NCBI GenBank assembly: GCA_963754655.1 | Contig: CAVWGN010000001.1 | Coordinates: 2,656,001-2,720,000, forward strand | DNA from: an uncultured Chlamydiae bacterium | GTDB lineage: Bacteria > Chlamydiota > Chlamydiia > Chlamydiales > Parachlamydiaceae | Length of the DNA stretch: 64,000 nucleotides | Direction: 5' to 3' | Shown here: positions 22,905 to 23,567 of the stretch, one piece after another | Layout: each line of letters opens with the position of its first letter | How positions within the stretch are numbered: the first letter of the stretch is position 1 | Made by a program: the position numbers and the translations under genes | The notes under the pieces: model-generated | Told to the model about the DNA's origin: nothing | What the model saw: the letters and a program-made list of their open reading frames with translations, nothing else | The model's database searches: none

Positions 22905-23070
22905 CTAGTACTCAACCACATTAGTTTTGTGTATTTAGATTGCTTCAAAGCCCCGGGGTTGAATTGACGTAAGTGGGTCCATATTGCTAATATTGACCCA
23001 CTTACGTCAATTCAACCGCGGGAGCTTTCAAGCAGTCTAAATACACAAAACTAATGTGGTTGAGTACTAG
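22905..23070. mobile_element. Palindromic MITE-like element A (166 bp)
   Basis: CTAGTACTCAACCACATTAGTTTTGTGTATTTAGA...TCTAAATACACAAAACTAATGTGGTTGAGTACTAG, almost fully self-complementary. Confidence 0.85.
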
Positions 23071-23567
23071 TACTCAACCACATTAGTTTTTGCCTATGGG
23101 AATGGTTTTAAATCCCTATGCGTTAAGGTAAGAGATGGGTGTAGGCTACGTTGCCGCATTCAGTCGCCACGCCGCTTCGCTCTGGGCTCTATGAGAGGGT
23201 TCATGGACCCACCGTTCGGTCGCCCTCCGGGCTCGGTCACGGTGGGCTAGAAACAGTCGTCCTCCGGACTCTAGCGGCATTATCAAAACGCCTTGACTAG
23301 CATTCTAGCAGCATTATTATGAAACACCTTACCTAACATTCAATGGCTTCTACATTGGCGCTAGAGTCCGTAGGACGACTGATTCTAGCCCACCGTGACC
23401 GAGCCCGGAGGGCGACCGAACGGTGGGTCCATGAACCCTCTCATAGAGCCCAGAGCGAAGCGGCGTGGCGACTGAATGCGGCACGTAGCCTACACCCATC
23501 TCTTACCTTAACGCATAGGGATTTAAAACCATTCCCATAGGCAAAAACTAATGTGGTTGAGTACTAG
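23067..23567. mobile_element. Palindromic MITE-like element B (about 500 bp), sharing a CTAG with A
   Basis: Near-perfect inverted arms of about 210 bp around an approximately 80-bp spacer; homolog at 61928-62425. Confidence 0.85.

Follow-up and report, generated by a model that had tools for sequence, protein, structure and literature searches.

Long palindromic repeats of a chlamydial genome as probable stacks of nested non-autonomous elements around IS200-like hairpin ends

A 64,000-nucleotide stretch of the genome of an uncultured member of the Parachlamydiaceae (assembly GCA_963754655.1, contig CAVWGN010000001.1, positions 2,656,001 to 2,720,000; hereafter the window) carries long repeats that are largely self-complementary and share an outer end starting with CTAG. 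How do such palindromes arise, and do they represent a new kind of mobile system? An earlier note on this DNA had read them as a hybrid MITE/REPIN system growing by nesting. We report that the long palindromes are real and that they are stacks of independent layers, not a new kind of system. Our best explanation, to which we assign a probability of roughly 0.75, is a matryoshka of non-autonomous elements around IS200-like hairpin ends. Doublets of Y1 transposase terminal repeats form the innermost hairpins, and MITE shells, presumably mobilized by DDE-type enzymes, carry these doublets or land in their hairpins. The outermost shell, O, integrates at CTAG-like sites, receives inserts of a class generating 7-bp target duplications, and is then mobile together with this cargo. 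The two arms of one copy would be made alike by template switching or by repair in the extruded hairpin, and this homogenization would erase target duplications and merge the layers into a single long palindrome. The system would be selfish DNA kept between genes, a host function being unnecessary to explain it.

The six elements and five remnants described earlier are all found at their positions in the window, the remnants being pieces of the same family, and elements A and B are indeed chained by one common CTAG, at the left end of B (Table 1; the layer names O, X, Yo, Za0, Zs, Zb, Zc, V and W were coined in the present analysis). The 20-base outer end has nine window matches at three mismatches or fewer, against 0.00 expected from 100 shuffles, so that the ends are shared as claimed except at the left of element C, which is without most of the motif. 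Searching the whole genome with this end, as the earlier note had proposed, yielded 150 matches at the same threshold and 188 with a relaxed pattern. All layers summed, the palindrome family occupies 358 loci and 143 kb, or 4.5% of the genome (G000; 3.16 Mb in two contigs, C1 and C2; 96.7% complete). The 35-kb contig C2 was considered as a plasmid and rejected, since its sequence repeats the initial 8 kb of C1; it probably represents a chromosomal piece that overlaps the larger contig. The genome encodes an ATP/ADP translocase, which, together with the nearest relatives of its Y1 gene, suggests an environmental chlamydia.

Self-complementarity was computed by global alignment of each element to its own reverse complement. 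It reaches 0.93, 0.92 and 0.91 for A, B and F, respectively, which upholds the claim of almost full self-complementarity for these three elements (all at least 0.91), whereas C (0.61, or 0.86 once its insertion sequence is removed) is broken by an insertion, and D (0.83) and E (0.74) are branched, forming no single simple hairpin because two inserts sit side by side in them. In predicted DNA folds, 86-94% of the bases of the six elements are paired, almost end to end, and element B reaches -291.5 kcal/mol (z -53 against 100 shuffles). Elements built as A occur four more times in the genome, with lengths of 165-166 bp and at least 95% likeness within the group.

Table 1. Positions of the palindromic elements, their layers, remnants and associated features in the window
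Feature	Position	Strand	Description
Remnant	8411..8530		Decayed shell O, no cargo
Half element	11669..12043		One Y1-a repeat, right ends of Zs and Za0, Zb-type target, O end
Element A	22905..23070		Shell O with 57-bp hairpin insert X (22959-23015)
Element B	23067..23567		O around Yo (23115-23519) around inverted pair of Y1-c terminal repeats
Element C	23564..25486		O (left end partly deleted) around Zb (23602-25429), interrupted by IS4
IS4-family (IS50/Tn5-like) insertion sequence in C	23867..25358	+	26-bp inverted ends
IS4 transposase frame	23893..25338	+	Open, 481 codons from TTG
Element D	33397..34046		O holding Za0 (about 33449-33927) and X (33935-33991) side by side
Inside Za0 of D	33498-33877		Zs; Y1-a terminal repeats at 33524-33619 and 33756-33851
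Remnant	46570..46645		Decayed right end of O-Yo element (by eye)
Element E	46740..47541		O around Zb (46796-47485)
Inside Zb of E	46872-47421		V (46872-47017) and Za0 (47025-47421) in tandem
Inside Za0 of E	47075-47371		Zs, containing Y1-a doublet (47101-47345)
Remnant	53913..55830		Decayed O-Yo left arm (53913-53959 and about 55806-55830), split by IS607
IS607 element	about 53960-55805	-	Serine transposase and TnpB
Remnant	61879..61902		Piece of insert X
Element F	61928..62425		O around Yo (61976-62377) around Y1-c doublet; build as B
RF01687 match inside Y1-a repeat	47142..47196	+	36.4 bits (cut-off 37)
Further RF01687 matches	47250-47304, 33565-33619, 33756-33810, 11677-11731

The description of the elements as non-coding fails for C, which holds a 1.49-kb insertion sequence with an open frame of 481 codons; an ATG at 23932 in this frame follows a ribosome-binding-like site. 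The encoded transposase matches PF14706, PF01609 and PF02281 and scores 279 bits with NF033590 (cut-off 160); these Tn5-like domains, a length within 1350-1550 bp and a duplication in the 8-9-bp range place the insert in the IS4/IS50 subgroup. Its 9-bp direct repeat lies at 23858-23866 and 25359-25367, in the middle hairpin of Zb; the only other full-length copies, two in number, occupy hairpins of this type as well. The Zb layer of C is itself built from a Y1-b terminal repeat. Elsewhere in the window, a short unlisted hydrophobic frame (8228-8410, about 58 codons, by eye) lies just left of the decayed O, and DUF4116 repeat proteins, one apparently frameshifted, are encoded at 53000-53890 and 60489-61880. 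About 12 copies of the IS607 element with TnpB exist, the one in the window among them. At 30922-32792, three short frames that are rich in glycine and repeated in part have no Pfam match, and an Rfam match to Prion_pknot at 31185-31221 was set aside as a low-complexity match.

At the centre of the stacks lie hairpin modules copied from the terminal inverted repeats, roughly 100 bp long and with three hairpins each, of Y1 transposase genes of subclass 1.2. Nine matches came from a Y1_Tnp search of the genome. Two of them are a canonical IS200 and a fragment of IS200; the other seven loci represent five related types (a to e), with type b present as two whole copies and a truncated one. The earlier note had suggested looking for a Y1 transposase flanked by the repeats; five types were found, each with a flank matching a different core, and these matches link type a to elements D and E, type b to C and E, type c to B and F, and type e to the W module. 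The downstream flanks of types a to e have 349, 99, 189, 38 and 80 genome hits of at least 30 nt, respectively, against nine for the flank of the canonical IS200. HuH and the catalytic tyrosine are intact in all five types. The signature Y-x3-Q-x2-HH, which together with a short protein and a low copy number is shared with TnpA-Y1 subclass 1.2 in the available text of PMC6006769, is exact in four of them, with one H replaced in the fifth. All five exceed the cut-off of the IS200-like model NF033573 (60-72 bits against 55) and stay far below that of the RAYT model NF047646 (23-26 bits, maximum 25.8, or no match, against 80). With such scores and the subclass 1.2 signature, the enzymes were rejected as true RAYTs, and the RAYT part of the REPIN claim has to be abandoned.

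The Y1 terminal repeats also occur, as REPINs do, as gene-less inverted doublets, and for type a such doublets are present in four of the five other genomes tested. Among 46 of 57 relatives of Y1-a (10 partial matches and one locus with too short a flank were left out), inverted repeats stand on both sides of the gene in 36, against 1/46 in the control, and internally deleted copies exist that retain the last codons of the gene. The type-d gene (G000:C1:2939100-2940000) is framed by an inverted repeat of about 200 bp including AT-rich outer parts. At G000:C1:1766750-1768402 and 2208357-2209949, a single shell encloses hairpin-spacer units repeated in tandem up to seven times, and genome G318 has a type-a doublet inside a different, asymmetric shell.

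The Rfam motif Acido-Lenti-1 (RF01687) matches the Y1-a terminal repeat in its two outer hairpins. At the Rfam cut-off the window contains neither a copy of RF01687 nor anything else relevant, matches to miRNA families having been discarded as generic hairpin matches; outside the window, at least 11 genome copies exceed 37 bits among the matches listed. In the best 20 relatives of Y1-a, the motif flanks the transposase gene at 13 loci, at six of them above the cut-off, and mostly faces the gene from both sides. Among the 150 chlamydial genomes scored in both searches, such a Y1 gene was found in 8 of 11 with RF01687 and in 6 of 139 without the motif, a contrast from which no statistic was drawn as it involves kin, fragmented assemblies and only the candidates listed. 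This placement and orientation around transposase genes point to a DNA end rather than to an RNA gene.

A role as working RNA, whether as terminators, stabilisers or Acido-Lenti-1 small RNA, would accord with the RF01687 matches and with the intergenic position of all window copies of the palindromes: the half element lies between two convergent peptidase genes, and the right end of D overlaps the stop codon of an aromatic amino-acid permease gene (34043-35272, minus strand). We regard this role as quite improbable, given that RF01687 flanks a transposase gene in 13/20 relatives, that insertion sequences interrupt the repeats freely, and that the outer ends are missing from all 300 other genomes of the order searched and from six of six orthologous loci in congeners. 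The earlier note had proposed to look for empty sites in sister genomes; these loci are too diverged to define such sites at the base level. The gap orthologous to the half element is about 70 nt long and repeat-free in a congeneric genome; the gene to the right of element C has no match in three of three congeners.

Around the cores, the shells have the features of MITEs: terminal inverted repeats, no transposase gene and family-specific duplications of 7, 8 or 9 bp, the longer copies containing separate insertion sequences with their own ends. Inspection by eye of 72 Za0 pairs revealed an exact direct repeat of at least 7 bp in 17, non-palindromic targets included, and fully mirrored flanks in 10, while 45 had neither a perfect repeat nor a perfect mirror. 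V and V-W-V units follow the same 7-bp pattern (by eye), and in element E the tandem of V and Za0 is bounded by one 7-bp target present three times (46865-46871, 47018-47024 and 47422-47428). For Zs, an 8-bp repeat (at least 7 of 8 bases) was found in 10/22 pairs; free copies of the Y shell have in some cases 9-bp repeats, at the hairpin used by IS4. The ends of Zc are those of a broken IS701-like element. This element (G000:C1:500500-503600) is interrupted by two other transposase gene fragments, one of them IS630-like.

Some shells extend beyond this genome. Za0-type ends are present in 5 of 300 other genomes, plus genome G315, in which Zs also wraps a type-a doublet. We read 25 Za0-type loci in other chlamydial genomes, 13 of them with both ends; 11 of these 13 are 153-bp hairpins devoid of a Y1 core and with exact 7-bp repeats, and one 153-bp hairpin sits inside a type-a repeat. 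For Za0, V, Zb (over 10 bases) and Zc, we identified elements whose ends match, the one for Zc being the broken IS701-like element, and none for the O, Zs, X, W and Y shells, the search for a parent of Zs covering 13 loci from five genomes. The 7-bp class comprises Za0, V and Zb, with W and X probably also members. The duplications and matching ends indicate that MITE shells of DDE type, presumably moved by the corresponding enzymes, carry the Y1 doublets or insert into their hairpins.

The candidate enzyme of the 7-bp class comes from an insertion sequence present in 12 copies in the genome and belonging to no Pfam or NCBIfam family. It has 7-bp repeats at nine of the 10 copies shown with both flanks, at targets like those of the shells (by eye), and its first 10 terminal bases are identical to those of Zb. 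Of 11 loci of this transposase family examined, six have inverted ends with 6-7 of 7 repeat bases, one has Za0 ends and four gave nothing usable; the locus with Za0 ends is a full-length insertion sequence in genome G020 (L227). One of the six, a second full-length member in the genome studied here (about C1:427.0-428.8 kb), has V ends and an open frame of 447 residues. No match to the transposase was found in G009, G005, G284 and G315, four fragmented assemblies in which Za0-type ends are present. A sequence search against solved structures found nothing; the predicted structure (pLDDT 86) matches Hermes (Z 15.0, rmsd 5.2 over 331 residues), as well as the P element and ISCth4 (IS256) transposases. 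With Hermes/hAT, the P element and ISCth4, the enzyme shares an RNase H fold with a large helical insertion, an invariant D, D, E and a DxxH motif; unlike them, it generates a 7-bp duplication, shows at most 13% identity and falls in no Pfam or NCBIfam family. The 7-bp shells thus probably belong to an uncurated Hermes-like DDE family, whose enzymes would be their main identifiable movers.

These shells bear directly on another reading, in which the whole composites are giant REPINs, with single-stranded hairpins moved by a Y1/HUH enzyme and the shells representing captured flanks. It would accord with the presence of five Y1 types whose HuH and tyrosine motifs are intact, with cores made of Y1 terminal repeats and with the arm-matched variation also described for REPIN spacers, as far as the available text of PMC3337134 goes. 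Yet each shell family has its own duplication length (7, 8 or 9 bp), shells occur that enclose no Y1 core, and DDE insertion sequences with the same ends as the shells exist. To our knowledge, Y1 enzymes make no target duplication. We therefore judge this reading improbable and disfavour it for the shells; it may apply to the bare Y1 doublets.

O, the outermost layer in the nested-element reading that we prefer, goes into sites resembling CTAG, takes up inserts of the 7-bp class and afterwards travels as one unit with them. O elements without cargo, 81-99 bp long, are present, and Y cores that lack O have a single CTAG at the position where others carry it. Among 53 paired O elements (140-1100 bp), 19 fall into six groups that are at least 95% alike and located at unrelated sites. 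A 505-bp four-layer composite occurs at five unrelated sites with up to 99.4% likeness; whole stacks therefore move. The swappable layers proposed by the earlier note are thus borne out as separate units with their own target duplications, found empty or alone and moving as composites, and so is growth by nesting, as judged from sequence for the movement itself.

Outside the genome, O ends were found in 0 of 40 relatives, 0 of 300 other genomes of the order and no viral contig. Metagenomes yielded three stretches; two represent a single site, next to an unrelated transposase, that looks like a chance match, and none of the three is a parent. On metagenome contig L113, around 1660-1830, O-like ends enclose a Y1-type hairpin module and are chained to a second end, which suggests that the shell-plus-core design exists elsewhere too.

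The identity of the mover of O is less firm. The earlier note had linked the outer end to the IS701 family; no intact IS701 and no DDE_5 match are present in this 96.7% complete genome, and an IS701 parent was rejected as no IS701 transposase with O ends exists in it. A noisy test for duplications on 69 O pairs gave 13 with TA only, none with 4 bp only, nine with neither, 12 damaged and 35 uninformative; it leans to TA, and the asymmetric 4-bp repeat expected of IS701 was found in 0 of the 22 informative elements. The only intact transposase element of the genome sharing the first 8 bases of O is an IS630 (206 bits against a cut-off of 100), the likeness being limited to these 8 terminal bases; among 60 relatives, IS630 was found in one, as a fragment. 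In PMC2266710, Table 1 (the part of that paper used here) gives an IS701 end consensus with 7 defined positions, of which the O end fits 6-7 (by eye) and the IS630 end 6. O is most likely moved by the IS630 transposase of the genome, a putative role based on these ends, the alternative being a lost enzyme of IS701 type. In that variant, everything else would be as in our best explanation, and O would have been moved by a since-lost IS701 enzyme with a strict 4-bp CTAG duplication. We consider it doubtful. Beside the consensus fit of the end, a true IS701 in genome G004, of the same family (395 bits), has the same 8-base start pattern and a 4-bp repeat; against it stand the 0/22 asymmetric repeats, the missing DDE_5 match, an only IS701-like relic with other ends, the intact IS630 with the same 8 terminal bases, and the 99.4% likeness of O composites, which therefore moved recently.

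How layers with distinct ends come to form one palindrome is illuminated by a comparison of arms. Arms are more similar within than between copies, at 0.989 against 0.971 for Za0 and 0.965 against 0.888 for Y, although for Za0 the best other copy is on average as close as the own arm (0.992 against 0.989). Variants private to one copy are mirrored in both arms in 16 cases and one-armed in 24 for Za0 (42 copies), and in 15 and 53 cases for Y (26 copies), so that layers blur into one hairpin; V arms stay different, with 0 mirrored and 20 one-armed variants in 69 copies. Mirroring runs on from one layer into the next and eliminates duplications on the way. Among 11 long mirrored flanks that were tested, 10 are themselves repeats and one is unique host DNA, insufficient to establish a capture of host DNA. 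Imperfect arms are known to be evened out by template switching, according to the available part of PMC13100816, and this may be happening in these elements.

The same data bear on the possibility that amplification or assembly produced the palindromes by fold-back. They are known here from assembled sequence, and short soil-metagenome contigs cannot span the hairpins. The one sequencing run listed as containing this stretch, no RNA run being among those listed, is a soil metagenome and possibly the source sample; in its contigs, module depth is far above single-copy depth. An artefact is nevertheless extremely improbable in view of the precise family-specific ends and duplications, the unmirrored V arms, the 10/11 mirrored flanks that are repeats and not unique DNA, the recurrence of the same cores (the Y1-a repeat in 4/5) and of two shells in separately assembled genomes, and the short repeat-free orthologous gap in a congener.

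Insertion sequences themselves are concentrated in these repeats. For seven families, 21/21, 16/16, 17/26, 7/8, 5/5, 8/14 and 18/49 outer flanks lie inside the repeat family, against 0/11 ends for IS607 and 2/4 for IS630 and an expectation of 4.4%. A rather unlikely extension of our best explanation would be a self-feeding MITE factory, in which Y1 ends serve as hairpin landing pads, several DDE families insert there, and arm copying, in the course of transposition or afterwards, mirrors one flank onto the other, turning any flank with a transposon end into new inverted ends. If so, composite MITEs would originate by mirroring in addition to insertion and internal deletion, and unrelated DDE enzymes would be the main vehicles by which Y1 ends spread.

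All the ingredients have precedents: MITEs, REPIN-like doublets, TIRtrons, insertion sequences targeting REPs, and arm homogenisation. In the accessible portions of the papers cited here, bacterial MITEs (RUP, NEMIS/Correia, ERIC, Nezha; PMC3733652) are likewise short and gene-less, with terminal inverted repeats, target duplications and parents with matching ends; in contrast to them, MITEs of several transposase families nest three to four deep here, and the composites that move are 0.5-1 kb long and palindromic over their whole length. Inverted doublets of Y1-flanking repeats, with one family per enzyme, recall REPIN/RAYT (PMC3116915, PMC3337134; TnpA-REP chemistry in PMC8266576) and TIRtrons/TIRYT (PMC3733652), as do tandem arrays, insertion of repeat into repeat and hairpin-preserving variation. 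REPINs differ in several respects: here the enzymes fall with IS200 (subclass 1.2), each unit is a 100-bp module of three hairpins, DDE shells carry most of the copies, and the elements are 3-10 times longer than the 89-bp REPIN of SBW25. As with REP-targeting insertion sequences (ISPpu9, IS1397, ISKpn1; PMC8450116), autonomous elements hit fixed spots of palindromes, but at least six families, and their MITEs too, do so in one genome. The system would thus work like nested MITEs on REPIN-like cores, outside the RAYTs and with a conjectural link to IS701. The full-text literature searched, a scope that leaves most subscription papers and ISfinder outside, contains no account of this family, of nested MITEs around bacterial Y1 ends or of Acido-Lenti-1 as a transposon end; nor, within it, is a nesting depth across transposase families, a set of matched parents of three 7-bp shells or a genome share like those found here in print. 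The TIRYT alignments of PMC3733652, Acidobacteria included, may cover the class of Y1 enzymes described here.

For the motif Acido-Lenti-1, an orphan in Rfam, the Y1-a terminal repeat offers an identity. The Hermes-like family with its MITEs and 7-bp target, and the subclass-1.2 Y1 enzymes with their terminal repeats, provide testable enzyme-substrate pairs. One genome supplies hundreds of dated, dissectable examples of the growth of bacterial palindromic repeats, and a bacterial chromosome can tolerate near-perfect palindromes of 0.5 kb by the hundreds.
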